64,000 bases of DNA from a virus (IMGVR_UViG_3300014205_000007:1-64000), one strand, 5' to 3'. Positions 19,403 to 64,000 are shown, counted from the stretch's first letter. Notes: a model not told the origin generated them from the letters alone. Program-made: numbers and translations.

Positions 19403-20302
19403 TCAGTTTATCGGCACCCAGTTATTGGACTGGGCATCCCAACGAATCTTTTCGCCTGTCTGCGGATTTACGTATACCTTGGGAGTAGCAGATTGAGCGG
19501 CACCCTTTTCATCCCCGCCATTTACCATAGCCGCCTTATCCTGTTTTTCCTGCTCCCTTTTCGGAAGACCGAACGAGGATCGTATGATAAAATCGGCGTG
19601 GTCAGCTATTTTGTTCAAATCATCTCGATTGGTGGCTTTCAGCATATCCGCCATGGTTGCATTGAATGCCTCCTGTCGAGCGTCTGACATATTCACGGCT
19701 TTTCCAGCCGCCATGAACTGAGTAACCAGCCCGTGCACATCATGGTGCAACAGGTTGTTGAGGTTGTAGCTCTGGTCATAGGGCGTCCAATAGGGGACCG
19801 TCGCCGTTGCTACGCCCGCGGCAGTGCGTCTGGCACCTTGTAGCCACGGGCTGCTGACCATGGGGCCGATGGCATTGGTCAAAACATCATCAGGAGCGGT
19901 TTTGACCGTATGGCGGATCATATCGAGGCCAGAAAGAACCTGCTGCCCGGCTCGCTGCTTTTCCTCCAGGCTGGCGAGATTATCGGCCGCCTTCTTGGCT
20001 TGCTCAACCCGATATATGTGGCCTGGAGTGTTCTGCAAAGCCCGCACTGACCCGGCCGGGAGGATCATGGAAAGACCGATATTCATTTTGTCTTCTGGGG
20101 TATTATAGGCTGGGGTTGTCCCCATGGACGGCATCACGGCCCCGGAAGCCGCCGTTGGGTCTCCAGCGCTCGGCAATCCCATCGGATTGAGCGATCCAGA
20201 CCCGCCATAGATGGATGACATCTGTGCATTGATCTGTTCGCCCGTGGTGCCATCAGGAAAGGAATGCACCTTGCCGTCGGGGCCGTTGACGGTAATAGGC
20301 AT
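19403..20302 (-). CDS. Internal virion/ejection protein
   Basis: GPDGKVHSFPDGT N-terminus; NPQTGEKIRWD C-terminus; position. Confidence 0.65.
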   Translation of the reverse strand: MPITVNGPDGKVHSFPDGTTGEQINAQMSSIYGGSGSLNPMGLPSAGDPTAASGAVMPSMGTTPAYNTPEDKMNIGLSMILPAGSVRALQNTPGHIYRVEQAKKAADNLASLEEKQRAGQQVLSGLDMIRHTVKTAPDDVLTNAIGPMVSSPWLQGARRTAAGVATATVPYWTPYDQSYNLNNLLHHDVHGLVTQFMAAGKAVNMSDARQEAFNATMADMLKATNRDDLNKIADHADFIIRSSFGLPKREQEKQDKAAMVNGGDEKGAAQSATPKVYVNPQTGEKIRWDAQSNNWVPIN

Positions 20303-22044
20303 TACGGCTCTCCTTCCGCGCCATCAGAACCATCAGCCTCGGGCGGCGGCATGCCTGGGGCGACCGAGGGAACCGCAGGAACCCATGTATACGACCCAGG
20401 GCTGACGGCCCCTGTTCCACCGCTTCCCGTAATCTTGTTGTAGAGGTTCCACTTGTTCTGCATCTGTTGCAGTTCAAGCTCCTTCTGGTACTCCATCTTC
20501 TTCTTTTCGATATCCAGAAGGAACTGCTTATCGGCTTGAGTTCGGGCCAACGCCGCCGATGCATTCATCTGTTCGAGCTTTGCAGGATTGAGTTGCGCCT
20601 CAAGGCCCAAGGCCCTATTCTGCCGCTCCTGCTCCATCTGCTTCAAACGCATATCGTTGGATTCGAACATCGCCTTACCGAATCCGGCGAAGGGGCTATC
20701 CCCAACTTGGGTCAACGCCGCCCCAAGTCTCTGCGTCGGAGACATTTGCTCCCCAGCCCACACCCCCGTCGAATACGTGGGGACGAACGATTTCCAATCA
20801 AGTCCAGAATCGGATTGGGTCGGTTGAGGTGCAGGATCAGTCGGCGCAGAAGAAACAGCGCCACCATCGTCATAACCCTTTATTGGCGCAGTCGAATTCA
20901 TGCTGTCGAGAAAGGACGACAAAGACTGCTGCTGCGACCCGAGAGAAGACGGCAGGAGCGCGCCGCTACCCCCAGAAAGACCGTTGGATGCCTCTTTGAG
21001 GGCCGTCCCGAACTGCTGTAGCTCTGTAGGTCCCTGTGCGGTATCCGTCACAACTGGTGTCCACGACCCGATCCCAACATCTCCACCCTTGGCGTAACCG
21101 GGAATCGGGCCTCCGGTAGATTTTCTCAACCCCTGAAACAACTGAAAATATTTCCCCACCTTGTCGTGCAGGGAATCTGGGCTGTAGGAAGGAATTACTC
21201 CGTCAATGCGCCCTCCGCTTGCCTTGCCCTTCGCTCCGCCAAGGCCGGAAAGATAAGAACCCAAGAGCCCTGTAGCGATTCCACCGATTGACGGTGTTGA
21301 CGTGCCAGTAGTCGTCCCCGTCCCCGTGGACGTACCAGATGATGTCGTGTTAGATGTGTTGCTTCCCGTCGTTCCTGACAAATTCCCATATGTGTTGTAA
21401 AGACTATTTAGGTTGCTCAAAAGATTTGAGCCGATATTGGCCGTGGCCGTGTTGGCGTTCGTAGCCGAGTTGGCTAGAGAGCCGGACGTGTTTGCGGCGC
21501 TGTTCTGAAGCTGGGCCGACTGAGCCGCCGTGTTCTGCGCGTTGGTGTATCCTTGATTGTAGAGCGAGGCGATCTGCGCCTGGTCCGCCGTATTCTTGGC
21601 CGACAGATAGGCAGCAGCCTGCCCAGTGTTATTCCCAAGGGCACCCTTTACGGCCGAATTACCCTGAAGGTCAGAAAGACCCTGCTTAGTGGCTAGATTC
21701 TGCGCCGCCTGCGTCGTATTGACGACGTTCTGGGTATAGGGCGACATATAGGAATTGATGGAATCGGCCGTAATACCGCTGGTTGCCAAGTTGTTGGCAG
21801 TGTTTTGCGCCGTGGTGAGGCCAGACGCAACATTGGACTGCTGGTCGCCCGCCGAGGTGAGGTAGTTTGTGCCGTTGGCGTTCGACAACTGACCCAACTG
21901 CGACTGCAGGTAGGGCTGTAGCGCAGAGTACGCATTGCTCTGCGACGTATTGGTTCCCGACGTGTTCGACGTTCCCGTCTGACTGGACTGGTTGTTTTGT
22001 GTCTGCGCCTGACTGGAGGAAAAAAGATCGTCCAACCATCCCAT
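20302..22044 (-). CDS. DNA-pilot/ejection protein (S/T/N/Q-rich)
   Basis: SYMSPYTQNVV, QIASLYNQGY; follows the GNAT-like gene as in P22/T7-type modules. Confidence 0.7.
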   Translation of the reverse strand: MGWLDDLFSSSQAQTQNNQSSQTGTSNTSGTNTSQSNAYSALQPYLQSQLGQLSNANGTNYLTSAGDQQSNVASGLTTAQNTANNLATSGITADSINSYMSPYTQNVVNTTQAAQNLATKQGLSDLQGNSAVKGALGNNTGQAAAYLSAKNTADQAQIASLYNQGYTNAQNTAAQSAQLQNSAANTSGSLANSATNANTATANIGSNLLSNLNSLYNTYGNLSGTTGSNTSNTTSSGTSTGTGTTTGTSTPSIGGIATGLLGSYLSGLGGAKGKASGGRIDGVIPSYSPDSLHDKVGKYFQLFQGLRKSTGGPIPGYAKGGDVGIGSWTPVVTDTAQGPTELQQFGTALKEASNGLSGGSGALLPSSLGSQQQSLSSFLDSMNSTAPIKGYDDGGAVSSAPTDPAPQPTQSDSGLDWKSFVPTYSTGVWAGEQMSPTQRLGAALTQVGDSPFAGFGKAMFESNDMRLKQMEQERQNRALGLEAQLNPAKLEQMNASAALARTQADKQFLLDIEKKKMEYQKELELQQMQNKWNLYNKITGSGGTGAVSPGSYTWVPAVPSVAPGMPPPEADGSDGAEGEP

Positions 22045-22049
22045 GTCCG

Positions 22050-22598
22050 TCAAGCCCCCGCGGCAGAAGTCGAATCGTTGACGCTAGAGTACAAGAATAC
22101 GGACCCGAACGGTTGACATTTGGAGGCCCGTTCATAGAACGCCTTGCGCCCCGCGTGCTCACCGAACGACTTCACCATCAATGGGACACCAAGTCTGTCG
22201 GAGACCCGCTCTGAGAATGCCATTAGCGTCTTGGCAAGTAACGCCGTGGACCTGTGCTCGGGCCGAACAAAATTCCAGATTGCATCGATAAGTTGCTCAT
22301 GCGAGAATGGGGACGGCTCGATAATGGTGAGACACACGGAGGCTTGTAAGTTGCCGCGTTCCCCCACAATCCCCACCCAGGATGCTGCCCGGTCCCCGTC
22401 TGATCCAATCGCGGCGCGCACCAGGGAGCGAGCCTTGGCCTCGGAAAAAAACAGCGGCTGGCCCGTGACAGTACGCAACGGGGATTCTTCGTGGATAAGC
22501 CGCGCCATGGATAATAGATCCCCCTCGTCCAGAGGGGAGGCAAGGCGTACAATGGACGTATCTATGATAGGTTTCAGCATGCGCGTTGGCCAGTCCAT
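22050..22598 (-). CDS. GNAT acetyltransferase-like virion assembly protein
   Basis: VRLAS..D, WNFVRPEHRST, FYER; position between tail and ejection genes. Confidence 0.65.
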   Translation of the reverse strand: MDWPTRMLKPIIDTSIVRLASPLDEGDLLSMARLIHEESPLRTVTGQPLFFSEAKARSLVRAAIGSDGDRAASWVGIVGERGNLQASVCLTIIEPSPFSHEQLIDAIWNFVRPEHRSTALLAKTLMAFSERVSDRLGVPLMVKSFGEHAGRKAFYERASKCQPFGSVFLYSSVNDSTSAAGA

Positions 22599-24976
22599 CA
22601 GCGCGCCGGGGGCGGCAAGGATTTCAAGGTAGCGATATGTTTCTGCCGCGTATCAAGCACGAACCTATCGAGGGCACGGTGTCCCGCGTCCATATCACCA
22701 TTGCCGAGCGCAGCGACGATTTCCGGCGCGACGACGTATTCTCCATCGGAAATCTTGATCGGCACCCCTCCGCCCGATGCGCGACTTTCGCGATGGCGCC
22801 CGAACATGCGATCCAGAACCGCAACGCCGGCATTTGTATTCCCCTCCGCCCCGTCCACGTTGGAAACCACGTCGCTTGGAAGCACGTAAGCGCCGCTTGG
22901 AACACTGACGGGGAGCGCGTCCGTTCTGCCGCCCGTGGCCCCCATGACAGGGCCAACAACAGCGCCCCCCTGGGCGTACTTCCGCGCCAGCCCGAGAGCC
23001 CGCCCGAATACACCGCCGCCCGTTGCCATCCCGCCCGTCAGCTTAGTGGGGTCGGACAGGTAGTCTTCCGCACTCATGCCTTCGGGCTCTGGAGCGGGCT
23101 CGGGAGATGCTGCTTTGGCCTTCTCAGGCTTGGACGTATAATTGCCAGACGCATCCTTATGTTTGATAGAGCCAGACGGCTCTTTCCACTTCTTGACCCC
23201 ATCGTCCTTGAAGTGCTTGAGTAGCTTTGATTTCGTTTTGCCTCTGACAGGAGTAGCAGATGCAGGTGCGGGTGAACTGGAAACCCCTGGTGTGCTGGCT
23301 GGCGGTACTTCTGCCCGCGGTGGCAATAGACGCTGCGGCACGCTGGTATCTGGACCAGCAAGGATCGAACTACTGGGGCTCGCAGGGCCTGACTCTCCCA
23401 GAGGCGATGGCGCGCGACTGGTGGGTTCTCCCCGCATTAGTTGCGGCCATGCTGGCTCTAAACGTGTGGGAGATGTGGAAAGCGATGCGGGGATGGAAGC
23501 GCGCCGCCGCGCAATCTCAAGCGCGATCTCTTCCGGGGAAAGCTTACGACCAAAGAGCCCAGGGTCCCGTTCAATGCCTCTGAGCGACGCGGTCTCGCCC
23601 GCGGCCTCGGCCATCGGAGGGCGCTTGCCGAAAACAGCACGCGAGGCGCCGCCAAGAGCTGTTGCCTCTGCTCCAGACAAGGCCAGCGGCCCCCATTCTT
23701 TAGCCGCCCCAGGCCATCCCTCGCTGCCGAACATCCGCGCCAAGTGTTCCTGGGCCTGCTCCTTGGCGCCACCAGGAAGAACGTTGCCTTTTTCATCCTT
23801 GACTTGCGGCCCGAAGGATGCGTCCCCGACCGTACCAACGGTACGAATACCCCCAGGAACCGCTGCCGCCTCAACGCCTGTCTTGACGTACTCAAACGGA
23901 GCGCTCTTTCTCCACTTGTCCAGCGCAATCAAGGCTGCCGCTTCATCGCGCGCATTGCCGCCCGCCCGCGCCGCCCTGACCGCATCAAGAAGCCTGTCGC
24001 CTTCCGATGCAATATGTCCAAATCCGCGGTTAGCCAAGGCCGCGGCGCCTACCCATGGCGCCCAATTGGCGGCGTGCTCGACACCTGGAATTCCGGATCG
24101 TTCGTACCAGGGTTTTCTTGCTTCAACATTCGACTGAGCTAGGTCCTGCTCGCGCTTGTAAGCAGGAGTCATTTGATATTGAAGCTCGCCGAGCCTCTTG
24201 TCGATGCGGTCAATTTCTGTGTTGTAACGGTTCGTCTGCTCTTGAATAGCTTTCCCTTGCTCGGCGAGAGCGCCGCTGATGGGACCTGGACCCTTGCCTT
24301 TCCCGCTCTTGCCTTTGCCGGAAAGCTCATCACTGGTTTCCTTGCTGGTGGAGAGAAACTGTTGGCTCGCCGCATCGCGCGCCGCAACAAGCTTCTCTTT
24401 CGCCGCCAGCATCCGGGCGATCTCCGCCTCTGGGCTTGCGTCTTCGGGACCGGATTCCGCCATACCCGCTCCAAGCCCCAGCCCCCCAGCAATCCCAGCC
24501 GCCACGCGGGGGCGGGCAGCATATTTTGCCGCGGCAGCTAATGCACTGACAGGCCCCCTGACAAACGGAGCTAGAGCCAACGCACCTTCGGCAGCACCGT
24601 GGCCATAATCACCCCGTGCGATGTCTTCTCCGGCCGATGCTGCGAGATCAAGGCCCGTAAGTCCCAACGCCGTGCTGCGCCCGAAATCACCAGCGTCCAT
24701 CAACCCTTGATAGGCTCTTCCGGCGAGCGGCCCGTACTCTCCCCCGATGAAGTCGGCGTGTGGTGACAGTGAGCTGCTGATATAACCCTCCGGCTTGACA
24801 TCTGCATCCCAGCCCCTGGGGTTGGTTTCCTTCATCGCAAGAATATCACGCATGGAGGGAGCTTCGCCGCCTTCGGCCCGGCCTTGACGCTCACCCCCCT
24901 TGGCGTTGATCTGCTTTGAGAGTTGCAGTGCTCTCTGGATAAGAGAGGCGCGTTTGTTGTTGTCGGCTTGTGACAT
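22598..24976 (-). CDS. Internal virion protein with a C-terminal duplicated GGRTD..G(A/E)YV domain
   Basis: GATGGRTDALPVSVPSGAYVLP and VPIKISDGEYVVAPEIV; G/A-rich and coiled-coil N-terminal part. Confidence 0.7.
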   Translation of the reverse strand: MSQADNNKRASLIQRALQLSKQINAKGGERQGRAEGGEAPSMRDILAMKETNPRGWDADVKPEGYISSSLSPHADFIGGEYGPLAGRAYQGLMDAGDFGRSTALGLTGLDLAASAGEDIARGDYGHGAAEGALALAPFVRGPVSALAAAAKYAARPRVAAGIAGGLGLGAGMAESGPEDASPEAEIARMLAAKEKLVAARDAASQQFLSTSKETSDELSGKGKSGKGKGPGPISGALAEQGKAIQEQTNRYNTEIDRIDKRLGELQYQMTPAYKREQDLAQSNVEARKPWYERSGIPGVEHAANWAPWVGAAALANRGFGHIASEGDRLLDAVRAARAGGNARDEAAALIALDKWRKSAPFEYVKTGVEAAAVPGGIRTVGTVGDASFGPQVKDEKGNVLPGGAKEQAQEHLARMFGSEGWPGAAKEWGPLALSGAEATALGGASRAVFGKRPPMAEAAGETASLRGIERDPGLFGRKLSPEEIALEIARRRASIPASLSTSPTRLEPAWPQLMRGEPTSRAPSPLGESGPASPSSSILAGPDTSVPQRLLPPRAEVPPASTPGVSSSPAPASATPVRGKTKSKLLKHFKDDGVKKWKEPSGSIKHKDASGNYTSKPEKAKAASPEPAPEPEGMSAEDYLSDPTKLTGGMATGGGVFGRALGLARKYAQGGAVVGPVMGATGGRTDALPVSVPSGAYVLPSDVVSNVDGAEGNTNAGVAVLDRMFGRHRESRASGGGVPIKISDGEYVVAPEIVAALGNGDMDAGHRALDRFVLDTRQKHIATLKSLPPPAR

Positions 24977-25212
24977 GGCGTTCCCTGAAGATAGAATCGG
25001 TACGCCGCACCCTGTAGTTATGCACAAGACCGACTGATTCTAAAAGGGTTGACGGCTCGAAGCACGGCTTCTTCGCCTGCGCTGCGCGCGCGTGTTGCAC
25101 CAGGACGATAGCCCATCCGTGCAACTGGCCGTAGCGCTCCCCGTTTCAGAGTGATGGGAGGCGAGACTTAGATACGTTTCAAGCTTCACCGGGAGGACCA
25201 CCTGAAACAATA

Positions 25213-28074
25213 CTACCCTTCATCATTACCATAATGATAACGTATCAAATCCTGTACCGGATCACCAGAATCCTGCGTACCCTCTTCTACTAATCCCAAT
25301 CCGAGTGGAGTCAGAAACAAGGGAAGCCCTTTCTTCAGGATTTCCTCCCTCATTTTAGGGGTGATAGGAATGGAGGGGTACGTTGGCCAACTCTCAGGCG
25401 TATACGCGCCACGAGCAAAGGCATGGGCCTCTGCCTCATTGTCGAAATGGCGCGCTGACGTATGGTCTGGAGATTCCGCCCGCCAGCGCCCAACGCCAGC
25501 GGGCTGCACATTGCCATACTTATCGGGCAACTGGTGCGGTTCTACTCTCGCCGCTTCTGGATCAAGTCCCTTAACTAGCTTCTGTAGTCTTGTTCCTACG
25601 ATACCTGATTTGTACCCTTCTGGTGTTATGTCACCGTAGAAGGACTTCATGCCTTCGCCGCCCATGCGAAGACCCTCTCCGGCGATAACCCTTACGTCTT
25701 CAGGCTGATTGAACTCTGGTCCAGGTCGCCCTTCCCCGCCCAATATGCGAGCTGCCATCTCATTGCCAACTACACCTGGCAATTCAGCCTCACTTACCAC
25801 GCGCTGATCTAAAACTGTCCCTCCTCCTGGGGTGTACGCGCTAAGCCCAATACGCCCATTCGGTTCGCGCCAGTGATAGAGTTCCCCAATGTGATTTTCA
25901 AGATTATACCTATCTGCCTGTACCTTCCCTGGTGCCCATGCTAGTCTATTAACAGATGGGTCTCTTGCTGCATCTATAAGAGCTTGTTTCAGTCCTAGAT
26001 CAACCCAGTCTGAGGTGTTGGATATGTAGGGGGCAGAGGGGACTCCAGCCCTGGCGGCTTGAAGCTTATTCCCAATGTCAAGCCCTTCATTTCGCGCCTT
26101 TGACCAAGCATCATAGGCTGGGCCAAGTTCTGCCTGTATCTCTGGTGTAACCAGTTTGCCAGACATTAAGATATGCTGGGCAGCTTCGCCAGGATTTTCA
26201 CGAACATGCTCTGGAGCCAGATACTTGTGCTTGGCCACGAGAGGAATAAGTGCGTCACGAGCCGCTTCCTGCCGAGCCCATGCGTCACTGCTCGCCTTTT
26301 CCAGCGTCGCAATAGCCGCAGGGTCTCTCGTCCCACTATCCCTTGCTCTCTGTGCCCAGTCGGATTGCATTTCGTCTAGAACTCTTGTTTTAGAAGGACT
26401 TGGTTCAGTCCAAGCTTCCGGTTTGCCGTAGATCGACTCTAAGTCTCCGCTCCCATGGGGAGGCGACGGGGTGACTTTCTCAGGGCGTCCAACTGAGGTG
26501 GGGTCAGCGTGATTTAAGAAATCTTTCTGTCTATAATGTAGCAAGGGATTGGTGATGCCGGACCAGTGGGAGGAGGTGTAGTTGGATGTGTCAGCTGCTG
26601 GGCCCAACGCACCCCAGCGGGTATTATAGTCTTCCCGCAGTCGTACTATTTCGGCGGCATGTGCCTCACCGCGACCTGCGCGCCGCTCAGCCTGATGCGC
26701 GTCCGTAAGCTGGCGAAGTTTTTCTTGGGCGGCGACGCGAGCGGGATCGTCCACATCCCTGCGCGGCAGCGTCGTCACCACCTCTCTATACGATCCTGGG
26801 ATACCGCCTGGGGTGGAGTAGGACTGATATTGAGCCGACCCCTGACCCGCATAGTCCTCCGGTGGCAGAGCGTCGATTTGCTCCTGAGTCATCGGCCCAG
26901 AAAGACGTTTCTCCCCCAACTGTACCCGATTATCTCTCAGGTACTGCTCTATCTCTGATCTTGAGACTTTTGCTTGTGGATCAGGATAGGCTTTGTCGAA
27001 TCCAACCGCTTCCAATTCCTTGGGCTTTCCGCCATACTTGGGATCAAGAAGCATGGATCGGAACTGGGCGACCGTTCCCTTCTCTTGTGGAAGCGCTTTA
27101 GCGGCCTCCAAGGTTGGAGAATAGAACCCTCTTGCATCGATCTCTCGGGCCATACGCATACCTTTTGGACCTCCTGGAACAACCATGCCAGCAATCAACG
27201 GCGCCGCCGCCCATGCCGCTCCGCTATAATCCTGCGCCTGAACGTTTTTGGCAACCTCTCCTATGCCCTGTCCCATTCCATAAGCCCCCGCAAGGGGGGA
27301 GGCCATCTCATAGGCTGGAGCAAGATACTCCTTGGTGTTCGGGTTGGCCCGCGGGTCGCGGCTCTCGCCCTGCCCGGTCCCTCTCAACTCGGATGGATGG
27401 AACTCTGGAAAATCCCTCAACGGAGGATAGGATTGAAGTCTGCGCTCAAGGTCGGACGGAAGCACCTGGGCTTCAGGGGCGAGATCACCTTGATAGTAGC
27501 GGTTGGCCAAAGCCAGGGTTCCGCCATCGGCGAACCCGACCCGACCACCATAGGCGTAGCCCTTTTTCAGGTCTCCAAGAGGGTATTTACTGGCCTTCGG
27601 ATCGCGCACCCATGCCTTGAAATGCTCGGTGCTGAGTTCCGTCACCGCTCCGATGCGATCTTTGCCCCTGCCATCGGAAAAAGCTTTTGTATAAGCATCA
27701 ACCGCTGCTTGTTTACTCGGAAAGGACAGCATGCACTTGGGCTCGTCGTATTTACCCGTTTTGGCATCAATTTGATCGATGACCCAAACCTTATCGGAGT
27801 CGTGGTCAGGCCCGACGTAGACATCGACGTGGTCACCGTCACCCGCTACCGTGTTCTTGATATAGCCGTATGCCGCGGGGAGCGTGCACTCCCATTTCTT
27901 GCCATTGGCATCCATGCCAGAACGTTTAGATCCTTTTGGGTTCTCAATGGCAATCGTCATGCCTTTATAGGGCAGTTTCCCCTTGGCATAGTTACCCGCC
28001 TCCTTGGCCCTGTCGGACGGAGTTGTATCGGTCTTCCGCGCGGCTAACTGCAAAGCTCTTGCTATCGGGTTCAT
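25213..28074 (-). CDS. Polyvalent virion protein with an N-terminal inorganic-pyrophosphatase-like (InPase) domain
   Basis: GNYAKG, IENPKGSKRSG, YGYIKNT..DGDHVDVYVGP, YDEPKCML; later GFYS and LDEMQSDWAQ modules. Confidence 0.85.
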   Translation of the reverse strand: MNPIARALQLAARKTDTTPSDRAKEAGNYAKGKLPYKGMTIAIENPKGSKRSGMDANGKKWECTLPAAYGYIKNTVAGDGDHVDVYVGPDHDSDKVWVIDQIDAKTGKYDEPKCMLSFPSKQAAVDAYTKAFSDGRGKDRIGAVTELSTEHFKAWVRDPKASKYPLGDLKKGYAYGGRVGFADGGTLALANRYYQGDLAPEAQVLPSDLERRLQSYPPLRDFPEFHPSELRGTGQGESRDPRANPNTKEYLAPAYEMASPLAGAYGMGQGIGEVAKNVQAQDYSGAAWAAAPLIAGMVVPGGPKGMRMAREIDARGFYSPTLEAAKALPQEKGTVAQFRSMLLDPKYGGKPKELEAVGFDKAYPDPQAKVSRSEIEQYLRDNRVQLGEKRLSGPMTQEQIDALPPEDYAGQGSAQYQSYSTPGGIPGSYREVVTTLPRRDVDDPARVAAQEKLRQLTDAHQAERRAGRGEAHAAEIVRLREDYNTRWGALGPAADTSNYTSSHWSGITNPLLHYRQKDFLNHADPTSVGRPEKVTPSPPHGSGDLESIYGKPEAWTEPSPSKTRVLDEMQSDWAQRARDSGTRDPAAIATLEKASSDAWARQEAARDALIPLVAKHKYLAPEHVRENPGEAAQHILMSGKLVTPEIQAELGPAYDAWSKARNEGLDIGNKLQAARAGVPSAPYISNTSDWVDLGLKQALIDAARDPSVNRLAWAPGKVQADRYNLENHIGELYHWREPNGRIGLSAYTPGGGTVLDQRVVSEAELPGVVGNEMAARILGGEGRPGPEFNQPEDVRVIAGEGLRMGGEGMKSFYGDITPEGYKSGIVGTRLQKLVKGLDPEAARVEPHQLPDKYGNVQPAGVGRWRAESPDHTSARHFDNEAEAHAFARGAYTPESWPTYPSIPITPKMREEILKKGLPLFLTPLGLGLVEEGTQDSGDPVQDLIRYHYGNDEG

Positions 28075-28177
28075 CCTCACATCCTATCAGGAAAATCTCC
28101 CCGTTTCCACAACCAATGGAGGGGAGACTTAGGCGGTCGCGCAACAAAAACCGAGAGCCATGACTGAACCATATGCT

Positions 28178-29573: not shown

Positions 29574-29744
29574 TTAGGCGCTCGGCTTGGCTAAGATGGC
29601 GTCTCGAACGGCTTCCAGCGCCGTCACGAGATCGGTATTGTTCGAGGACGCATCGTCAGCGATCTTGCCGACGATCTGGTTCAACTGACCTCTTTGAGTG
29701 TCCTTGACCGTCGATGTATTGGTTTGAGGTTGAAGTGGTGGCAT
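29574..29744 (-). CDS. Small 56-aa protein (not in the ORF track)
   Basis: MPPLQPQ...AILAKPSA; abuts both neighbours exactly. Confidence 0.6.
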   Translation of the reverse strand: MPPLQPQTNTSTVKDTQRGQLNQIVGKIADDASSNNTDLVTALEAVRDAILAKPSA

Positions 29745-31795
29745 CAGAGTCTACCGTCCTTGGTAAGCCGAAGCCGCGTACCGCCAAATCTCCAGAAGGA
29801 GCCCACGTCGTCGCTTCCGAACTGAAACGAAATAAATCTTCCTCGCAGCCTCGGGTTGACAAACCTTGTCGCCTCCGTGACCGGAAAAGTTTGTGTTCGG
29901 GCTGGGCCGGGAAGATATTTATAGCTGTTGATGGTCATATTCACGTTGGCCGACGGATTGGAACTGTTATACAATCGCCAATTCATGTCAGGCAGCATCC
30001 AATCGCAAAACATCAAATCCTGCCCATCCGCCAATTGATAGAGGCCAGTAATAAAATAAGTATTCATCGGCTGTCCATCCGCGTCAGGGGAGGTTTCGTG
30101 CTCATAGATGATCCCTGTTGGAGTCGCAGCAATGGGCATGCCGACAATGGACTGGTCTATACCAGCGCTTCGGCTGAAAACGGGGTCCTGGTCAAAAGCC
30201 CATGCCCCTTCCTGAATGTTGTACGTCACCGAGGCGTCGCATTCCGTAGCCCCTGTGGACGCCCGTGGGAAAAAGAACGTAATTTCATTGAACGGCGTAT
30301 TGGCCCACGCCCAGCACTTGTGCTGATAAGTCGTGTTCAAATCCTGAAACACAACGTCCCACACCGAGCATGGAATGACCTGTGGGGCTCCAGAGCCGAG
30401 GAGGGCATAGAAATTCGAGCCAGACATCCAGAAAACGCTTGCCCCCAGCCTCGCGGCGGCATGTTTTCCAATCAGCCCACAACCCCAGCCGATCTGATTG
30501 AACCCCCACACGCCGGCCTGAAGCGAGCCCAAATAGGACATGGCCCATAGGCCAAGATCGGTCCACAGCAATTCCTGGTTCTGCGCCGACATACCACCGA
30601 TAATGCGAGACCCCGTAGACAACCTGCGAGAGCCGGCCTGACTTGTGGTCGAAATTAAAAACGAGGTGAAATCCCCTACGTCGGACCACGCGACCAAAAG
30701 CGGGTCTTGATCGACCCCGATGCCGACCGTTGCCGATGCCCCATAGCAGATGAGCATCTGCGTCTGCATGGAGACGAATGCCCCAGTGTTATGTACGGGG
30801 GCTGAAGAAACCAACTGCGCGTTCTGAATCCCAGAGTTCGGACGCCATTGGTAAACCCCCAATCCTTCTGGGTTGGCGATGAGAATTTCGCCCCAGTTAT
30901 CCAACGCCCAATCGGTCGCTGTAATGGGTGTTCCGGTCTGAACCGTATAGGATGACCCGGTGCCGTACCCTCCATCTCCGTATGGACCGATGCCATATCC
31001 AGTGGAGCCAGAAACAGGCCCAAGGGTAATGGAATAAACAACCTGGACATCGCCACCGTTCATGGACGCAGATGTAGTCGAGGAAGCAAGGTTGGTTGCC
31101 GCGACGATGAAGACACTCGTAGATGTTACGGAAATAACATCATAGGTGCCGAAAATCGTCACGCCACCAACCGTAGTAGATACGGAGAAATTAATGCTGT
31201 CCCCTACCACCAGTCCATGGTCGGCCAATGTCACATCGACCTCCGATGATCCAGACGTGACATTGAACAACGGGACTGCACCTCCGGCCGTCACGCTTGA
31301 TGTTGCATTCACGGCTGCTACGATACGATACTGGCCCACACCCAAGGATAGATCGACGGGATAGACACCAGACAAAATCAATCCCCCAACCGAAACGGGG
31401 GTGTTGAATTCTATGCTGTCATAGGACGTGATCGTGGTGACGTTGGGATCGTTTACGGTGACGTTTGGAGACCCAAGCGTCGTGTCGAAATCTGGCGTAA
31501 AATCAGAAACAAGGGTTTGAGGCGTAACATCCGTAAGCGTGCCCCCGGAAATAACCCCGAGCAGTGCCGTTGTCCCCACCCCGAGATAGTGGACCTCGTT
31601 GAGGTCAAGCCATGCGTGCAGCGCTTTTGGAACCCCGCCTATCGCGAACGGATAGTATTTTTGCCACCCTCCGCGTTTTTCTGCCAGCCCGGCCCGGAAC
31701 CGGATAAGATTGGACGTGTTGATGGCCGCTTCCGACAAGGATGGAGTGGATTCCACGTCCACTCCCGGACGCAGCTTGAGCATGGCCATCGGCAT
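29744..31795 (-). CDS. Tail tubular B / packaged-DNA stabilisation (P22 gp10-like) protein
   Basis: RFRAGLAEKRGGW, WALDNWGE, VAWSD, QIGWGCGLIG, RLRGR..WRFG. Confidence 0.8.
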   Translation of the reverse strand: MPMAMLKLRPGVDVESTPSLSEAAINTSNLIRFRAGLAEKRGGWQKYYPFAIGGVPKALHAWLDLNEVHYLGVGTTALLGVISGGTLTDVTPQTLVSDFTPDFDTTLGSPNVTVNDPNVTTITSYDSIEFNTPVSVGGLILSGVYPVDLSLGVGQYRIVAAVNATSSVTAGGAVPLFNVTSGSSEVDVTLADHGLVVGDSINFSVSTTVGGVTIFGTYDVISVTSTSVFIVAATNLASSTTSASMNGGDVQVVYSITLGPVSGSTGYGIGPYGDGGYGTGSSYTVQTGTPITATDWALDNWGEILIANPEGLGVYQWRPNSGIQNAQLVSSAPVHNTGAFVSMQTQMLICYGASATVGIGVDQDPLLVAWSDVGDFTSFLISTTSQAGSRRLSTGSRIIGGMSAQNQELLWTDLGLWAMSYLGSLQAGVWGFNQIGWGCGLIGKHAAARLGASVFWMSGSNFYALLGSGAPQVIPCSVWDVVFQDLNTTYQHKCWAWANTPFNEITFFFPRASTGATECDASVTYNIQEGAWAFDQDPVFSRSAGIDQSIVGMPIAATPTGIIYEHETSPDADGQPMNTYFITGLYQLADGQDLMFCDWMLPDMNWRLYNSSNPSANVNMTINSYKYLPGPARTQTFPVTEATRFVNPRLRGRFISFQFGSDDVGSFWRFGGTRLRLTKDGRL

Positions 31796-31799
31796 CGGA

Positions 31800-32201
31800 T
31801 CAGCCCTTCCCGATAGCCAATGGGCTGTGACCGTTCGCAAGGATGGGCAAGCTTAGCTGCGATACGGCATCGCCCAGAACGTCCTGCACCGCTTGTCGCG
31901 CCCGCTGCACGGCCATAGCCCCGATAGCGACACTTTCGTCCCTGTGCGTCTTCACTTCATTGGCGACCTTATCGGTTGTGGCAATCATGCGGTCCTGCTG
32001 CAGACCGTTCTGCAAGGCGAGCAAGTACATATGGTTATCGATGCAATTCCACCGCCGAGTGATCGCTTCTCCGGTGCGCGGGTCATGCCCGTCAAGGTAG
32101 TCCCATAACCAACACTGCTCTGACACCACCAGATCACGGCAGGATTTCGCAAACCCAGTTTTGTGGCACATACGCTCTTTCGGTGGATTTCGGTCAGCCA
32201 T
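31800..32201 (-). CDS. Cys-rich tail-fibre-associated protein
   Basis: C..C..CWLW...GHDPRTGE...WNC. Confidence 0.65.
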   Translation of the reverse strand: MADRNPPKERMCHKTGFAKSCRDLVVSEQCWLWDYLDGHDPRTGEAITRRWNCIDNHMYLLALQNGLQQDRMIATTDKVANEVKTHRDESVAIGAMAVQRARQAVQDVLGDAVSQLSLPILANGHSPLAIGKG

Positions 32202-33476: not shown

Positions 33477-34205
33477 CTACCCCCTTTGAGGAACTGCTGT
33501 AGGCTCAACCGCTGCCGAGGTCCATGAGGCCCCACCGAACCTCTTGCGCGCTTCCCACGTTGCGGCGGACTCCTTGAGTTGCGCGTACTGCTGCTCCCAC
33601 CCCATTGTCTGCCCCCCGGCATCCGGGGTCGGCGAAAAGTTTTTCTGAAACGCGCCTTGGGCAAAGATCATGGATGCGGCCGTGAACAGATCGGGCAAAT
33701 AAAGCGTCAAAAACGTCGTCGGATTGTTTACGGACAATGGCGTCGGTATGATCTTTCCAACCACCTCGACCCGATAATTGGCATCCGGCCAGGGTCCAAA
33801 AATGATATTAGATTGCCCTGAAGCCTGCGAGAAATAGGCGAATTGCTGTGGAATCCCCGAGCCCGTTGAGGATGGCCAAGCGTAATCCAAAACCGTTCTG
33901 CTTACCGGGACAAGCGGGTTGCGAGTTCCAGACTCTGCGGTGCTCCCTGCTGGGGAAATAATGTTGACCTCCTTGACGATCTGAAACGTCCCAATCGATG
34001 TCGGGAGGGTAAAATTCCGCACCCCGGACGTACAAGATGCAGAGCTATCGGCAATATCCTCTACCAGCATGTCAAGCTCGCGGTATATACGCTGCTCTGC
34101 ATAGTCGATTATCGACGGTATGATTTGCAGAAAGTTTGCATCGGCCGGGTCCTCGGCGAGAAGGTTTGCCAAGGTCGTGACATACGTGGCATAGGTCAGA
34201 CTCAT
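33477..34205 (-). CDS. Head-tail adaptor / tail tubular A-like protein
   Basis: IIDYAEQRIYRELD, GPWPDANY, NPTTFLTLYLPDL. Confidence 0.8.
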   Translation of the reverse strand: MSLTYATYVTTLANLLAEDPADANFLQIIPSIIDYAEQRIYRELDMLVEDIADSSASCTSGVRNFTLPTSIGTFQIVKEVNIISPAGSTAESGTRNPLVPVSRTVLDYAWPSSTGSGIPQQFAYFSQASGQSNIIFGPWPDANYRVEVVGKIIPTPLSVNNPTTFLTLYLPDLFTAASMIFAQGAFQKNFSPTPDAGGQTMGWEQQYAQLKESAATWEARKRFGGASWTSAAVEPTAVPQRG

Positions 34206-34579: not shown

Positions 34580-35416
34580 CTAGTACACAAAGGCGCCGCT
34601 GGACGTGAAGGTGTGAATGGTATTGCCTCCAGAGGAGGTCACCGTGCCGCCCGTAGCCACCTGTATCCCAGCATAGCTGATGATCACCACGCCAGACGAG
34701 CCATTGCCTCCATTTGATTGTGTGGAACCGCCACCGCCACCGCCACCCGAGCCCCTGTTGACGGTTCCGTTGCCGCCTGCCGTGCCGTTGGCCTTACCAT
34801 CACCACCTACGCCGGATGATCCGCCCGCGCCACCCGTGCCGCCTTCGCCGCCACCGCCACCGCCCGCAGCATAAATAACCGCCGAGCCGGAGATAGAATT
34901 AGATGTTCCATCGCCACCCGCGCCGCCGTTAGTGGCGCTCGGGCCATTGGCGCCTGCGGCGCCCGATCCGCCGCCTCCGCCTGCACCGTAGGCAACCGCG
35001 CCAGCCACCGCGCTGCCACCATCCCTACCAACCGGAGCCCCCGTGCCGGTGCCCCCCGCGATCCCAGAGCTTTGACCACCACCACCACCGGAGCCGCCGT
35101 TGGCACCAGTAAAATTGGAACCTTCGCCTGCACCACCACCACCACCACCCGTGGAAGTGACGCTGCTGAATATCGATGAATTGCCAGTGCCACCCTGAGT
35201 ACTGGCGGCAGTCGAACCGCCGCCGCCAGCGCCGACAGTAACAGTGTAGGACCCAGGATTGACGGTAAAGCCACCGGCTGTGCGGTATTCCCCAGCGCCG
35301 CCGCCGCCGCCGCCGTAGCCATAGGCGCCACCCGCCCCGCCGCCAACGACAAGATAAGTAACCGACAGCGCCGGCTTGTAGGTAATTATCAGCGCTTGAT
35401 GGGAGACGCCTGCCAT
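34580..35416 (-). CDS. Glycine-rich domain fibre-tip/adhesin protein
   Basis: YLVVGGGAGG, YAAGGGGG, GGNGSSGVVIISY, IHTFTSSG. Confidence 0.8.
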   Translation of the reverse strand: MAGVSHQALIITYKPALSVTYLVVGGGAGGAYGYGGGGGGAGEYRTAGGFTVNPGSYTVTVGAGGGGSTAASTQGGTGNSSIFSSVTSTGGGGGGAGEGSNFTGANGGSGGGGGQSSGIAGGTGTGAPVGRDGGSAVAGAVAYGAGGGGGSGAAGANGPSATNGGAGGDGTSNSISGSAVIYAAGGGGGGEGGTGGAGGSSGVGGDGKANGTAGGNGTVNRGSGGGGGGGSTQSNGGNGSSGVVIISYAGIQVATGGTVTSSGGNTIHTFTSSGAFVY

Positions 35417-43666: not shown

Positions 43667-43684
43667 GCACTCCATATAGCACAG

Positions 43685-43699
43685 GAACGCACGGGGAAC
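43685..43699 (-). promoter_or_regulatory. Putative alphaproteobacterial LexA box overlapping the promoter of the GIY-YIG gene
   Basis: GTTC-cccgtgc-GTTC on the minus strand, within ttgttc...tgctatat, ~20 bp upstream of the ATG. Confidence 0.55.
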
Positions 43700-43734
43700 A
43701 AGCGTATGGAGTGAGTTTTCCATAAAGTTTCTAT

Positions 43735-49457: not shown

Positions 49458-50555
49458 CTACTCAGGGGAATCGCTCATCCCTTGATGCTTGCGAAGATAG
49501 TCCGCCGCGCGACGCATCAGTTCTGGATCATCGCGCAATTTACCGATGCCACGATTACAGGCACCGCAGAGAAGCTGGCGAACCTTGCCAGTCCGATGGT
49601 CGTGATCAACGGATAGCCACCGCAGTTTTCCGTTCTTCATTTCAGTCTCAGGACTGCGGCAGATGGCACACTTACCATCTTGTTCGGCATGCATGCGGTC
49701 ATAATCCGCCAATGTAATCCCAAACGCTCTCAATAGCGCACCATTGCGCTCGACCTCCGGGAAGGCAATCCGCCGCGCGCGGTCGTAAGCCCTTTTACCC
49801 TCTGCGCTAGTGGCCGCGCCGAGAGTGCGGTGCATGGTCTCTTCCCACGCCCAGTTCCCTGGCCCGATAGGAAGCTCGACGTTAATGGGGACCAACCTCG
49901 TATTAAGCCGGAACCCAGAACGCTCGATGTCCCTCTCGAAATCCTCCAAAGAGGCCCACCCGACATGCCCCAGCGCCCGCGCAACCGTCCCCGCCCAAAG
50001 GCGCCGCACATTAGATGAGACGCGGTAAGTCTCTCTGCGTTGCGGCGCGTCAGGGTTGTCCTGCGGCAGAGCGGCGTAGTGTTTGCGGGCTTTGTTGCAC
50101 GCCTCAATCGCTTCAGCCTTAGTGCGGAAGCGCCCAACGGCAATCTGCTTGTAGTTCACAGTTATCTTGGCGAACCACTTCTTTTTGGTCTTGTCCCAAG
50201 ACACGCCAGCGCCGCGATTGCCCTTGTAATGTTTACGTGTCGTTTCCGCTGGCGTGAGCAGCTTCAGGTTGGCAAAGCGCAGATCAAGGTAATCCCCGTT
50301 CTTCGGAGATATGTTGTGCTTCGGCCATTCGCCGTTGACATAGAACCAAGCCAAGCGGTGAGCCAAATAAAGGCGATCATCTACCTTGATGTACTTCCGA
50401 CCATTCGCCGCAACCGATCCAGGATCGCGTGCGAACGATGCTGGCCGCGCAGTCTCACGATCCTTCCAAGCGAAGGCGCCAGCTGATGGACTGTAATCCA
50501 GCAGCTCTTTCAGGCGTTGATGTGAAACTGCGTTTTCCACGTTCTTCCTAGTCAT
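49458..50555 (-). CDS. Homing endonuclease: degenerate HNH + AP2 + endonuclease VII domain
   Basis: RLKELLDY, YLAHRLAWFYVNGEWP, GVSWDK..WFAKI, QDGKCAIC..LSVDHDHRTGKVRQLLCGACNRGIG. Confidence 0.9.
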   Translation of the reverse strand: MTRKNVENAVSHQRLKELLDYSPSAGAFAWKDRETARPASFARDPGSVAANGRKYIKVDDRLYLAHRLAWFYVNGEWPKHNISPKNGDYLDLRFANLKLLTPAETTRKHYKGNRGAGVSWDKTKKKWFAKITVNYKQIAVGRFRTKAEAIEACNKARKHYAALPQDNPDAPQRRETYRVSSNVRRLWAGTVARALGHVGWASLEDFERDIERSGFRLNTRLVPINVELPIGPGNWAWEETMHRTLGAATSAEGKRAYDRARRIAFPEVERNGALLRAFGITLADYDRMHAEQDGKCAICRSPETEMKNGKLRWLSVDHDHRTGKVRQLLCGACNRGIGKLRDDPELMRRAADYLRKHQGMSDSPE

Positions 50556-50625
50556 CCGTAAATCTCCAATTGATGCCAATTCCTCTATTGTAGAGGCGCC
50601 GATTGGAGATGTCCAGTGCATTTAG

Positions 50626-50692: not shown

Positions 50693-51604
50693 TCAAGACG
50701 CTGGCGTTGACGCCCAGATGCACCTTGGATCGTTGTACGTACTGATGTAGCGCTCGTACCCCTTAATCAGCACGTTGTCCGTGTGGTTGTCCACCCACAT
50801 ATCCGTCTCGAACGGAATGCGCTCCATCATCACGAGGCCATCGATGTTGGTCTTGATGAACCAGGCATAGGGTGAGGTCAGGTAGTCGTTGATCGTGTAT
50901 TCGCGGATACCGGCCGGCATTGACAGGACCGCGTTGACGGTGTTGTTTGCCGTATCGGGCTGCAATTCCGTCTTCATTAGACGTTCTGCAACTGCGGTGA
51001 GCTGTACCGGGACAACCAGCTTCTGAGCCCTGGCATTGATCTTGAGGCCGGCTTCATCCACGAACTGCGCGCGAATGTTCTGGCATGCCTGGATCAGGGC
51101 CGTTTCCGTCAGATCGAGCTGAACGGAGAAGGTATTGGCCCAAGTACCCCCATCATATGGATGCGCAGTGGACGAAAGAGGCACCGCATCACCGCCGACC
51201 GTCGGATCGTAGGTAGCACAGTTGTTGAGGACGTTGGCCGACTGGATTTCCTTGAACTGATTGAATGAGTTTGCCAAGGGGAGCTTCATAAGATTGAAGT
51301 CCTTGACGTACTGGTTGTCGTCCAGCGATTCACGGGTGATCGAGTACCCCAATCCAACCTGGAAGGGCTGGGCATTGTAGATGTAGCGCTGGCCCGAGTT
51401 GTTATCGAATGCCGTGGCGCCGCCTTCCGTCTTGAGCTGGGCCAATCCAAGAATACGCATCTGCGCCTTGGATTCAACTCGCAGCGTTGCCTTATGGACG
51501 GTAAAGAGGTCGCTCCACTCCTTGGGAAGCTGCTGGTATTCGCCAGCAACGTCGTAAAGGCCCGGCAGGAGCAAGGACTTGATTTGTGCGGTATTAACAG
51601 CCAT
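50693..51604 (-). CDS. Major capsid protein
   Basis: IKSLLLPGL, GLAQLKTEG, GYSITRE.LDDNQY, LSSTAHP, NDYLTSPYAWFIKT, KGYERY..DPR. Confidence 0.88.
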   Translation of the reverse strand: MAVNTAQIKSLLLPGLYDVAGEYQQLPKEWSDLFTVHKATLRVESKAQMRILGLAQLKTEGGATAFDNNSGQRYIYNAQPFQVGLGYSITRESLDDNQYVKDFNLMKLPLANSFNQFKEIQSANVLNNCATYDPTVGGDAVPLSSTAHPYDGGTWANTFSVQLDLTETALIQACQNIRAQFVDEAGLKINARAQKLVVPVQLTAVAERLMKTELQPDTANNTVNAVLSMPAGIREYTINDYLTSPYAWFIKTNIDGLVMMERIPFETDMWVDNHTDNVLIKGYERYISTYNDPRCIWASTPAS

Positions 51605-59764: not shown

Positions 59765-60310
59765 TTACTTACACGACCCGCCGCGCTTGAACTTGGTTTC
59801 CTTTTGCCCCTTATGCAGGCTGGATTCGTGCTTGTGCACCATCTTGGAGATCATCTTCTTGTCCTCGGCGGCATCGGGATGGACCTTGCCACCCATCGCC
59901 CGTCCGATCCGTCCACCCTTGGCCATAGGCCCCTGCGGAGGTATCGGGGGACCAGATGGCGGCATAGACGGCCCTGAAGGCCCTGGCGGCGGCCCTGGCG
60001 GGCCACCCGGCATCGCCCCAGGCGGCGGCATAGGCATAGGCGATGCCCCACCCTCCTTGGGCATGATGATGACGTTGACATTGGTGCCGGCGCTCTTGCC
60101 GTCCTTGCCCATCTTGCGGCCAGGACGATCCAGGCGGGACTTGGCCATCCCACCTTCGACGGGACCGGGCATATTGGCTGCCCCGACAGCGCCTCCAGAG
60201 GCATAGGCTTTGACCTTCTGGCCTGCAACCTTACCTGATACCTTTGAACCCATGAACTTGGAAAGCTTGGCGGCCATCCCGGACTTGGCCTGATCGCGAA
60301 TGTTCTTCAT
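59765..60310 (-). CDS. Basic, Pro-rich protein with AxGG motifs
   Basis: YASGGAV, TNVNVII, poly-Pro, MAKGGRI, HPDAAEDKKMI, FKRGG. Confidence 0.75.
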   Translation of the reverse strand: MKNIRDQAKSGMAAKLSKFMGSKVSGKVAGQKVKAYASGGAVGAANMPGPVEGGMAKSRLDRPGRKMGKDGKSAGTNVNVIIMPKEGGASPMPMPPPGAMPGGPPGPPPGPSGPSMPPSGPPIPPQGPMAKGGRIGRAMGGKVHPDAAEDKKMISKMVHKHESSLHKGQKETKFKRGGSCK

Positions 60311-60357: not shown

Positions 60358-60567
60358 CTACTCCGATAGAATGGTGCTCGTGAGCTTTGCCTCAATCCCG
60401 TCAAGGCGGTCGCGGATTGAGGCAACAGCGGCGAGATAGGCTGGAAACGGTGCCTGATTGCCCATCGCTACTTCATAGCGGCACTTGGTTTCATAAAGGT
60501 CAAGCGCCCGCGTGAGTGCTATCATCTCTGAGTCATTTAGAGTTAGGGTGTACGTATATGTGGTCAT
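60358..60567 (-). CDS. Hypothetical protein
   Basis: ATGA overlap. Confidence 0.5.
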   Translation of the reverse strand: MTTYTYTLTLNDSEMIALTRALDLYETKCRYEVAMGNQAPFPAYLAAVASIRDRLDGIEAKLTSTILSE

Positions 60568-61915: not shown

Positions 61916-61973
61916 AGACATTGACCTTGATATGGTGTTGACAGATGCTCACTATCGAGTTCGCATCTTGCGC

Positions 61974-62393: not shown

Positions 62394-62479
62394 TTACTCC
62401 TCGCTTCAACCCGATGGGAGGTGAGAAGGCAACCAACTCTCAACTTGCGCCGGGAGGGTTGCCTGAAACAAATCTTACC

Positions 62480-64000
62480 TCAGTTCACAGTATAGGTAAA
62501 TGGCGGTAGTCTTGACGCATCGTACACTGGCCCACCCACTGACTTCTCTTGTGGATCAGGCTTCTGTTGAACGATTTTCAGCAACGCTTCGGCAAGCTCT
62601 CCAAGCGCTCGGTGATAGAGTTCCCTCTCTGCCTGCGACTGGTCATCCGCATCGACCTTACCGCCCATAGCCATTGATCCACCCTGGCCTTGACTTTTGG
62701 CTGGGGTGATTAGCCCGGACATCTGGTTCAACTGCTGGTCTACGATGGGGTCAGCGTCTGGGTGAACACCGACTGTCTGGGCGACCTTCAGAGCTTCCAC
62801 CGAGAGTTTGGTCTCTCGGTTCTGGTGTGAATCATAAGCCTTGAAGGCCATCTCCTGGTCCTTCTGGCTCAACTGCTTGCTCTTCAGTGCGAGTAGGGCT
62901 TCCTGGTTGGGATCGGACTGGGGCAGAGCCGAGGAAGCCTGATGCGCGATCTTCGATGCTTCGATATTTTCCTTGGAGGCCAGTTGATCCTTTTTGAGTT
63001 GTGTGTCACTCTCGACTTTCTTGGCCGAAATTTGCAACTGTCCCTGCTTGGTCTGGCTATCCAGCATTCTGGCCTGCGCCGAGATCATCGCAGCAACGGC
63101 CTTTGGATCGGGTGGCGGCTGGCCCTGTTGGGGAGCAAAGTCGGACTGTATATCATCGATCTTGACCATCGAGGCCCAGCGGGAGACAACCCTCTGCATA
63201 TTGAACACGCCCGGCATTTGCATGGCGGTCTGCAGGTAGGTGTTGGCTTTGGCCAGCCGGTGAATGTGCGATGGAACGTTGGGATCGGAGGCAGGAACGA
63301 TCTCGCAATTCTCCAACGCCTGCTTGAAACGCTCCACCCGCTGTTTGTGGGCGGCGGCTACCTGCTCCTCTGTGGCGCTTTTCCCGGCCGGGATAACACC
63401 AAGGGCTGGACGTTTGTTGTCGCGCCACAGGGATTCGGGGTCTTCCTTGAACAGCTCCTGGAAAAGGCTGAACTCCTCTTTCTGGGCCGCATGGAAGGAC
63501 TTGTGGACCGAGCTTTCCACCTTGGTTGCCTGCTCGATAGCCGCCAGAACAGAACCTACGGGAGTATTCTGTACTCCTTCCCCGACCGGAACCTCGGCCG
63601 AGCCTCCGAGCTTGGTTCCAACCTCACGCAAGGCCCCCATAAGAGACATCAACCCTGGGGTTACGTCCTTATAGGGGAGCGCCATGATGGCGTCCTGGAT
63701 TCTCCCCCCTTGCGCTCCGGTGATATCGACGGGAGCCAAAGTTCCAGGAGCGACGCGGATTTCGTTGGATAGCTGTCGGGTGGCCCCCTTGGCAATCAAT
63801 CCGCCGGGGAAGTTGGCGAACATGCCGGCGTCGATCCCCTCGCGAACCAAAGCCGTCAAGGCCATGGTGATATTGCCGAGGATGTGCAGAAGTCCAATTC
63901 CGTAGATCCCCGCAAATCCTGCCGTGACATAAGGGAAGGCAACAAAGGGAATCTTGGCTTGCACGTTGCCGTTCTCAAACCCCGGATCACCCTCGCGCCA
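62480..64000 (-). CDS. Portal protein, C-terminal part (5' end outside the window)
   Basis: GIYGIGLLHILGN, DAGMFANFPGG, MALPYKD, PVGS.LA.IEQATKV.S.VHK..H, PASDPN; Q-rich tail. Confidence 0.88.
   Translation of the reverse strand, partial: WREGDPGFENGNVQAKIPFVAFPYVTAGFAGIYGIGLLHILGNITMALTALVREGIDAGMFANFPGGLIAKGATRQLSNEIRVAPGTLAPVDITGAQGGRIQDAIMALPYKDVTPGLMSLMGALREVGTKLGGSAEVPVGEGVQNTPVGSVLAAIEQATKVESSVHKSFHAAQKEEFSLFQELFKEDPESLWRDNKRPALGVIPAGKSATEEQVAAAHKQRVERFKQALENCEIVPASDPNVPSHIHRLAKANTYLQTAMQMPGVFNMQRVVSRWASMVKIDDIQSDFAPQQGQPPPDPKAVAAMISAQARMLDSQTKQGQLQISAKKVESDTQLKKDQLASKENIEASKIAHQASSALPQSDPNQEALLALKSKQLSQKDQEMAFKAYDSHQNRETKLSVEALKVAQTVGVHPDADPIVDQQLNQMSGLITPAKSQGQGGSMAMGGKVDADDQSQAERELYHRALGELAEALLKIVQQKPDPQEKSVGGPVYDASRLPPFTYTVN

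Follow-up and report, generated by a model that had tools for sequence, protein, structure and literature searches.

The late-gene block and its motif-carrying proteins

The stretch of DNA analyzed here (IMGVR_UViG_3300014205_000007:1-64000; hereafter the window) covers the first 64 kb of the genome of an uncultured phage. This genome is complete at 98,089 bp and has terminal repeats, and its late genes lie on the minus strand (Pfam and PHROGs scans). Six of its minus-strand genes encode proteins with copies of a heptapeptide, [R/Y/F/K]-A-x-G-G-x-[V/I]. This motif is real and conserved, and it recurs at the joints of six probably particle-internal proteins. The carriers are given below with their lengths in amino acids (aa), isoelectric points (pI) where relevant, and motif copies.

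62480-65113, minus strand: portal protein (PHROG 1216, E 2.5e-12; 877 aa; the window ends at 64000), with C-terminal tail copies MAMGGKV (62654-62674) and KSVGGPV (62525-62545)
59765-60310, minus strand: basic Pro/Gly-rich, largely disordered protein (181 aa, pI 10.5) in the head-gene block, with 4 copies: YASGGAV (60185-60205), MAKGGRI (59906-59926), RAMGGKV (59882-59902) and FKRGGSC (59771-59791)
47298-48287, minus strand: very basic Gly-rich protein (329 aa, pI 10.2), with 6 copies: RASGGKV (48141-48161), YASGGAV (47952-47972), FKKGGSV (47859-47879), RADGGKV (47835-47855), RASGGSV (47550-47570) and FAKGGKA (47475-47495)
25213-28080, minus strand: InPase polyvalent protein (955 aa; PF18823 at aa 24-158, E 2.8e-47), with a doublet spaced 8 aa apart: YAYGGRV (27538-27558) and FADGGTL (27514-27534)
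22598-25027, minus strand: GGRTD protein (809 aa), ending in a tandem GGRTD/GEYV domain, with 4 copies: RAEGGEA (24860-24880), MATGGGV (23009-23029), YAQGGAV (22958-22978) and RASGGGV (22763-22783)
22598-23095, minus strand: the C-terminal GGRTD/GEYV domain itself (last 165 aa), composed of two related half-domains with a motif before each (alignment A2)
20302-22053, minus strand: acidic, Gly/Ser/Thr/Asn/Gln-rich protein (583 aa), with 4 copies in a central linker: KASGGRI (21205-21225), KSTGGPI (21103-21123), YAKGGDV (21076-21096) and YDDGGAV (20854-20874)

The setting of these genes is given by the following members of the same block.

50693-51604, minus strand: Mu gpT-like capsid protein
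29744-31840, minus strand: conserved nozzle-like protein (698 aa), after which comes a run of large proteins
22050-22598, minus strand: 182-aa protein without the motif, a conserved neighbor of the GGRTD protein

The late block also holds an LPD23 protein (PF18838, E 1.6e-22; Pfam scan) and two paralogues of the SU10-type adaptor. In 80 related IMG/VR loci the order runs adaptor, nozzle, GGRTD protein, 182-aa protein and large proteins, which is the T7-like order for internal (ejection) proteins; the phage is an SU10-adaptor podovirus. Gene order, together with the InPase and LPD23 domains, indicates that the motif carriers are probably located inside the particle. The product of 20302-22053, encoded downstream of the GGRTD protein, is probably an internal (ejection) protein; it has no Pfam or PHROG match, and at the equivalent place related loci likewise encode large proteins with the motif. 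A homologue of the 182-aa protein follows directly after the GGRTD gene in 51 of the 80 loci, making it the most conserved neighbor; its best annotation is a weak match to PHROG 1249 'acetyltransferase' (E 9e-5), and it occupies the position of T7 gp14.

Enrichment, placement and conservation of the motif

All 22 heptapeptides that an earlier sequence-only reading had listed were found in the minus-strand open reading frames (ORFs) to which it assigned them. The strict pattern [YFRMK][AK]xGGx[VI] occurs 15 times in 39 ORFs, compared with 0.41 +/- 0.64 copies expected from 1000 per-protein residue shuffles, the maximum among which was 4. All 15 strict copies fall in the six carriers, where the per-protein shuffles predict 0.17. 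A six-frame ORF scan of the complete genome added only three: KADGGGI, a third portal copy at aa 16 (N-terminus) that lies outside the window; YAPGGWV in a terminase-like ORF; and one in a non-coding frame. As previously noted, the major capsid protein, the adaptors and the putative scaffold protein were without a copy. The motif had also been described as genome-wide and its carriers as unrelated, but it is confined to the six carrier proteins, and two of these (47298-48287 and 59765-60310) have in common a 29-aa module, 69% identical (E 4e-7), that immediately follows a motif copy.

Chance, or the composition of Gly/Lys/Ala-rich proteins, might be held responsible for such a pattern, given that the carriers contain 8-18% glycine and that the pattern was drawn up with the copies already in view. 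This explanation has a negligible probability, and is refuted by the shuffles (15 copies seen vs. 0.17), by replication in the 80 other loci with a strand control, and by an independent family alignment in which the motif columns are the invariant ones. A 278-aa Gly_rich_2 (PF21722) protein encoded at 34580-35416 (minus strand), which serves as an internal control for glycine richness, contains 50 GG dipeptides and zero motif copies.

In the strand-controlled survey of related loci, ORFs on the coding strand contained 225 strict copies, or 0.55 per 1000 aa, vs. 2 copies, or 0.01 per 1000 aa, in ORFs on the opposite strand. When position 1 was left free, it was R, Y, F or K in 73% of 271 AxGGx[VI] sites, with excesses over background of 6.9-fold for Y, 6.0-fold for R, 4.8-fold for F and 2-fold for K. 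Codons vary between copies, with Gly encoded by each of its four codons and Ala and Val by several; thus, selection acts on the peptide rather than maintaining a DNA repeat, and a DNA-level repeat or recombination signal was rejected because codons differ from copy to copy.

For the C-terminal GGRTD domain, the protein collection yielded 54 homologues, fused to InPase, CHAP, M15, SLT, lysozyme or S74 domains; 2-8 copies of a loosened pattern are present in every one, and at least one strict copy in 53. A copy lies at about aa 130-220 in 23 of the 24 InPase-bearing homologues and after the N-terminal helix (aa 14-50) in many others, and nearly all have one or two copies around the C-terminal domain. 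In the GGRTD protein of this phage, likewise, a single copy comes after the N-terminal helix, and the other three are placed around the C-terminal domain. Relatives of the domain are encoded in at least 560 IMG/VR stretches, and tblastn searches for cultured relatives returned only two uncultured 'Caudoviricetes sp.' records. Stand-alone GGRTD proteins (e.g., L025:9815-9940) start with a conserved segment of about 40 aa (MPLKKGSSQK..ISELVHSGRPQKQAIAIAL..AR) that has a weak DUF6496 match; this segment is also found at the start of the AP22-type 'head maturation protease' (DUF2213), and constitutes a tiny free ORF in RSB1 (gp47), phiCbK (gp238) and MED4 podoviruses. A function of this segment as a prohead-targeting tag was unsupported, because in RSB1 and phiCbK the free-standing ORF lies outside the structural genes. 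A shorter RALQLxxR helix precedes the motif in the InPase and GGRTD proteins of the window (28030-28080 and 24900-24976).

For the small basic protein at 59765-60310, 103 homologues were aligned (A3), and only six columns are invariant: the GG pairs of the first and second motifs, G53 and P104. Whole modules are present or absent in this family exactly between motif copies. Other conserved blocks, located between motifs, are found in varying combinations in the family (homologues P0056-P0157): RLDRPGRK, TNVNVIIMPK, a proline-rich run, DKKMI..MIHKHE..H.G and a C-terminal GAGGG.GRL.K.KAYG.

The placement of the motif in linkers at module borders was borne out, in that copies lie in low-confidence or disordered stretches. 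In the AlphaFold2 (AF2) model of the GGRTD domain, the predicted local distance difference test score (pLDDT) is 80.7 overall and exceeds 90 in the core, with values of 55-77 in the motif stretches; the 59765-60310 protein, with a pLDDT of 57.8, is predicted to be largely disordered. In the InPase protein, the enzyme domain ends at aa 158 and the motif doublet starts at aa 175. Such doublets, with neighboring copies spaced by exactly 8 residues, account for 3 of 17 spacings. The GGRTD domain gave no match to a solved fold (Foldseek on PDB, best E 0.24; VIA-align on 48,161 chains, best Z 3.0). Common domain ancestry of all carriers was rejected: hhalign of the GGRTD domain against the small-protein family aligned the motif only (E 0.23). 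Because the joints are disordered or of low confidence and the GGRTD and small-protein families are otherwise dissimilar (the 29-aa module is common to the two small proteins only), the motif is a short linear motif in flexible joints.

These properties could belong to a purely structural seam, a flexible Gly-Gly hinge or cap, neither cut nor bound, that allows modules which fold or unfold independently to be joined in a chain and passed through the tail channel, and that persists as cassettes swap along with their own end pieces. Such a seam would fit the gain and loss of cassettes exactly between copies, the disordered flanking context, and the remnant C-terminal copy found where relatives have a further module. 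We nevertheless consider this doubtful: a hinge needs no fixed Ala, V/I and R/Y/F/K at set positions (6-7-fold enrichments), the codon diversity speaks against a DNA-level recombination signal, and phage T5 pb2 is reported to be cut at its own copy (a disputed site; see below).

Other features of the genome include GIY-YIG/AP2 and HNH/EndoVII/AP2 homing-endonuclease-like genes that interrupt the structural block (positions 42854-43816, 49458-50621, 33477-34205 and 43735-44427 cover these genes together with the two SU10-adaptor paralogues); a 377-aa Gram-negative porin (PF13609, E 2.9e-17) in the early region (4816-5949, plus strand); and two IS1595-family (ISXO2-like) transposase genes (7806-8777, minus strand; genome position 86526-87593, minus strand), in a genome with terminal repeats.

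Tape measure proteins and their cuts

Profile comparison shows that the motif and the GGRTD module share ancestry with a module at the C-terminal end of the tape measure proteins (TMPs) of siphophages. The second GGRTD/GEYV half-domain with its preceding motif matched a profile of the JBD30-type TMP module (A4, built from 30 diverse relatives of the JBD30 module) with hhalign 95% and E 3.9e-8, and the same profile matched lambda gpH aa 730-790 (89.5%, E 2e-6) with both flanking motifs aligned. Lambda gpH aa 733-784 comprises FATGG, a TGGKYEP loop, a GEFV strand and YATGG; JBD30 gp46 aa 1019-1087 comprises FASGGHI, a GPGTGTSD loop and HATGGQI. The window has the architecture of the TMP module: [FYR]AxGG, a Gly-rich loop with an acidic residue and Pro, a GE[YF]V strand plus helix, and a second AxGG. 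No Pfam family covering module or motif was found. The motif is part of an old building block, present also close to the C-terminus of siphophage TMPs and made up of the motif, a GxGTxD/GGRTD loop, a GE[YF]V strand and the motif again. The systems differ in that lambda gpH and JBD30 gp46 have one half-domain per TMP whereas this phage has two in tandem, and in that the motif here is also carried by portal, polyvalent and small basic proteins. The module of this phage is not located in a TMP: the GGRTD protein had no match to a TMP family (Pfam), and the gene order (adaptor, nozzle, internal proteins) is that of a T7-like podovirus.

Both lambda and T5 TMPs are cut. Lambda gpH is converted to gpH* and gpHC by loss of a ~14 kDa fragment from the Gly-rich C-terminal region, with both site and catalyst described as unknown in a 2025 structural paper (PMC12617516). 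The cut falls in the same Gly-rich region as the homologous module, and cutting at the first gpH motif would release a computed 12.7 kDa. T5 pb2 is reported to be cut 'after R1127', giving pb2* (2-1127) and pb2C (1128-1219) (Linares et al., 2023; PMC10038345, supplementary table). Residues R1127-M1133 read RAEGGMM, one of only two AxGG sites in the 1219 aa; A1128, the start of pb2C, is residue 2 of this heptapeptide, so that the reported cut lies between residues 1 and 2. The chance of a random bond falling just before either pb2 AxGG is about 0.2%, and PRAEGG is invariant in 20 distinct T5-like TMPs. A reading as a signal-peptidase-like AxG↓G site was dropped, because the T5 cut precedes Ala. 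As in the processing we favor (below), the pb2 cut parts an enzyme-like C-terminal piece from a channel-forming body; pb2 differs in having M rather than V/I at the last motif position and in being a siphovirus tail protein. In one T5-like TMP (L144), the His of the proposed pb2C zinc-carboxypeptidase motif GEHGTE is replaced by Asn (GENGME), and this His is thus not invariant.

The sequence-only reading had interpreted the motif in part as an address that loads proteins into the capsid. In general form, this would be a docking or packaging handle, a binding peptide, often bivalent as 8-aa doublets, whose receptor would be the portal, the capsid interior or the GGRTD domain, and which would act like the capsid targeting sequence (CTS) of T4 or the cargo-loading peptides of encapsulins. 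Several observations would suit such a handle: the motif is limited to proteins plausibly inside the particle; position 1 favors planar side chains (R, Y, F), as in stacking pockets; exact 8-aa doublets occur, as does a copy at an extreme C-terminus; and copies inside a stand-alone GGRTD domain fit binding better than cutting. However, the same motif and module occur in TMPs, which reside in the tail tube and never enter the capsid; a capsid-specific address is therefore unlikely and is the reading least compatible with these occurrences. The portal does not support it either, given that its tail copy is kept in only the 5 closest portal homologues, the motif stretches in cis were not confidently docked on the domain in the AF2 model, and none of the tests made gave a sign of binding. 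Encapsulin-type cargo-loading peptides are C-terminal, so that position as well as consensus differ here, and the occurrence in tail proteins argues against this type too. A complex prediction for the GGRTD domain (A2 aa 47-165) with the doublet region of the small protein (A3 aa 120-181) scored 0.00, which is no answer and speaks neither way. On balance, we rate a handle of this kind as rather unlikely.

Carriers in the capsid interior and in the tail tube have two features in common: they either are ejected or are located at the exit, and their modules are swappable. The motif could be imagined to act only after ejection, for instance by being cleaved by a protease of the host envelope, or by touching peptidoglycan or membrane during formation of a trans-envelope channel. 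All carriers indeed leave the particle before the DNA or are positioned where it exits (the C-terminal regions of TMPs, the internal proteins of podoviruses and the portal tail), and the fusion partners of GGRTD are often cell-wall enzymes (CHAP, M15, SLT, lysozyme). Yet cutting of the TMPs of lambda and T5 takes place before infection, while tails are being assembled (PMC12617516, PMC10038345), and no wall-binding or membrane domain was recognized around the motif, which leaves an exclusively post-ejection function very unlikely.

A proposed processing or junction signal of ejected proteins

We tentatively favor the reading that the motif is a proteolytic processing or junction signal of ejected proteins, with a probability of roughly 0.45. 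The motif would be kept by selection at joints between modules of probable particle-internal proteins, and the bond broken would be the one that joins residue 1 to Ala, the position mapped in T5 pb2. Long precursors would in this way release enzyme modules, channel modules and N-terminal helices, either while the particle is assembled or when its contents are ejected; the protease may come from the host, may be a novel protein of the phage, or may be the flanking module. Enrichment, conservation, linker position, gain and loss of modules at the motif and homology to the TMP module are direct observations; we infer that the peptide bond is cut, as well as when and by what agent. A cleavage signal had been part of the earlier proposal; it has gained indirect backing from the TMP-module homology, the gpH cut in the same region and the reported T5 cut at a motif.

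The polyvalent proteins offer a precedent, being multi-module proteins that are thought to be packaged, injected and then processed into units (Iyer et al., 2017; PMC5512222). Their hallmarks are present here as InPase (PF18823) and LPD23 (PF18838) domains in late-gene context, and GGRTD relatives are fused to InPase, CHAP, M15, SLT and lysozyme. A zincin-like MPTase peptidase domain has been proposed for their processing (PMC5512222), and none was found here; neither 'glycine' nor 'linker' occurs in the text of that paper. The literature searched was not found to mention the motif, and crassvirus cargo processing likewise yielded nothing relevant.

Maturation sites of T4 and adenovirus are a second point of comparison. 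The T4 CTS has an L/I-x-E consensus and is cut by gp21, and adenain of adenovirus cuts (M/I/L)-x-G-G↓x. Alike in all three cases is a short consensus repeated on several internal or core proteins, including small basic ones, and the small basic carriers of this phage would be chopped into peptides, as in maturation of the T4/adenovirus type. The differences are substantial: the T4 CTS is an N-terminal L/I-x-E, whereas most copies here are internal and have another consensus, and the complete genome has no S77, S78, ClpP, Mu-like_Pro or DUF2213 match that would indicate a T4-type prohead protease. The adenain site has M/I/L two residues before GG, a position that in the 221 copies examined is filled by Ala (91%) or Lys (8%), the only two residues that the search pattern allowed there; adenain cuts after GG, whereas the sole mapped cut at this motif (T5) precedes Ala; and clan CE family PF02902 (C48) had no match in the complete genome, although no search was aimed at the adenain family proper and a divergent enzyme may be present. 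The resemblance to double-glycine processing that had been suggested is superficial: the copies recur within the proteins rather than ending an N-terminal leader, a leader consensus is lacking, the C39 peptidase (PF03412) is absent from the complete genome, and the T5 cut lies three residues before GG.

Several points weigh against processing. Cleavage has so far been observed in zero proteins of this phage or its relatives. The statement that the window contains no recognizable prohead protease holds for the complete genome as well: six-frame searches of it with ten peptidase families (Mu-like_Pro, S78, ClpP, Prok-JAB, NlpC/P60, M23, DUF2213, S77, C48 and C39) gave no match, Pfam or PHROGs scans of about 65 proteins revealed no peptidase, and the same scans found no peptidase domain in the motif-bearing proteins. 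In the stand-alone GGRTD proteins of 160-200 aa, cuts at both motifs would break up what is one folded domain, and a simple cut site needs neither the exact 8-aa doublets nor FKRGGSC only 7 residues from a C-terminus. The T5 site is itself disputed, with an older estimate of V1148 +/- 1 and R1127 being also tryptic (PMC11937520). Finally, A4 vs. T5 pb2 aa 1115-1180 was not significant (E 0.45); because the T5 downstream sequence is without detectable homology to the JBD30/lambda module, the link to T5 is through the motif alone.

A broader version of the processing reading is that [R/Y/F/K]↓A-x-G-G-x-[V/I] constitutes a pan-Caudoviricetes code, by which one activity would cut TMPs, podovirus internal proteins, polyvalent cargo and some portal tails into functional parts. 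We consider this quite unlikely; its agent could be an enzyme found in all hosts, or the flanking GGRTD/GEYV module if it cleaves at its own border.

New in the present analysis are the coincidence of the motif with the T5 cut site, the profile link between a podovirus internal protein and TMPs, and the presence of the motif in a portal tail and in small disordered basic proteins. A heptapeptide that lies at the reported T5 cut, flanks the lambda/JBD30 module and fences cargo modules in hundreds of uncultured phages yields a prediction that can be tested by mutation. The position and mechanism of the lambda gpH cut have been an unsolved question since 1974; if the pan-Caudoviricetes code were true, the cut sites of gpH and many other phage proteins would be readable from sequence. 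If the motif is a processing signal, the mature products of injected phage proteins (anti-defense enzymes, wall-degrading domains and channel formers) would be predictable from genomes, and cargo slots for phage engineering would be definable likewise.

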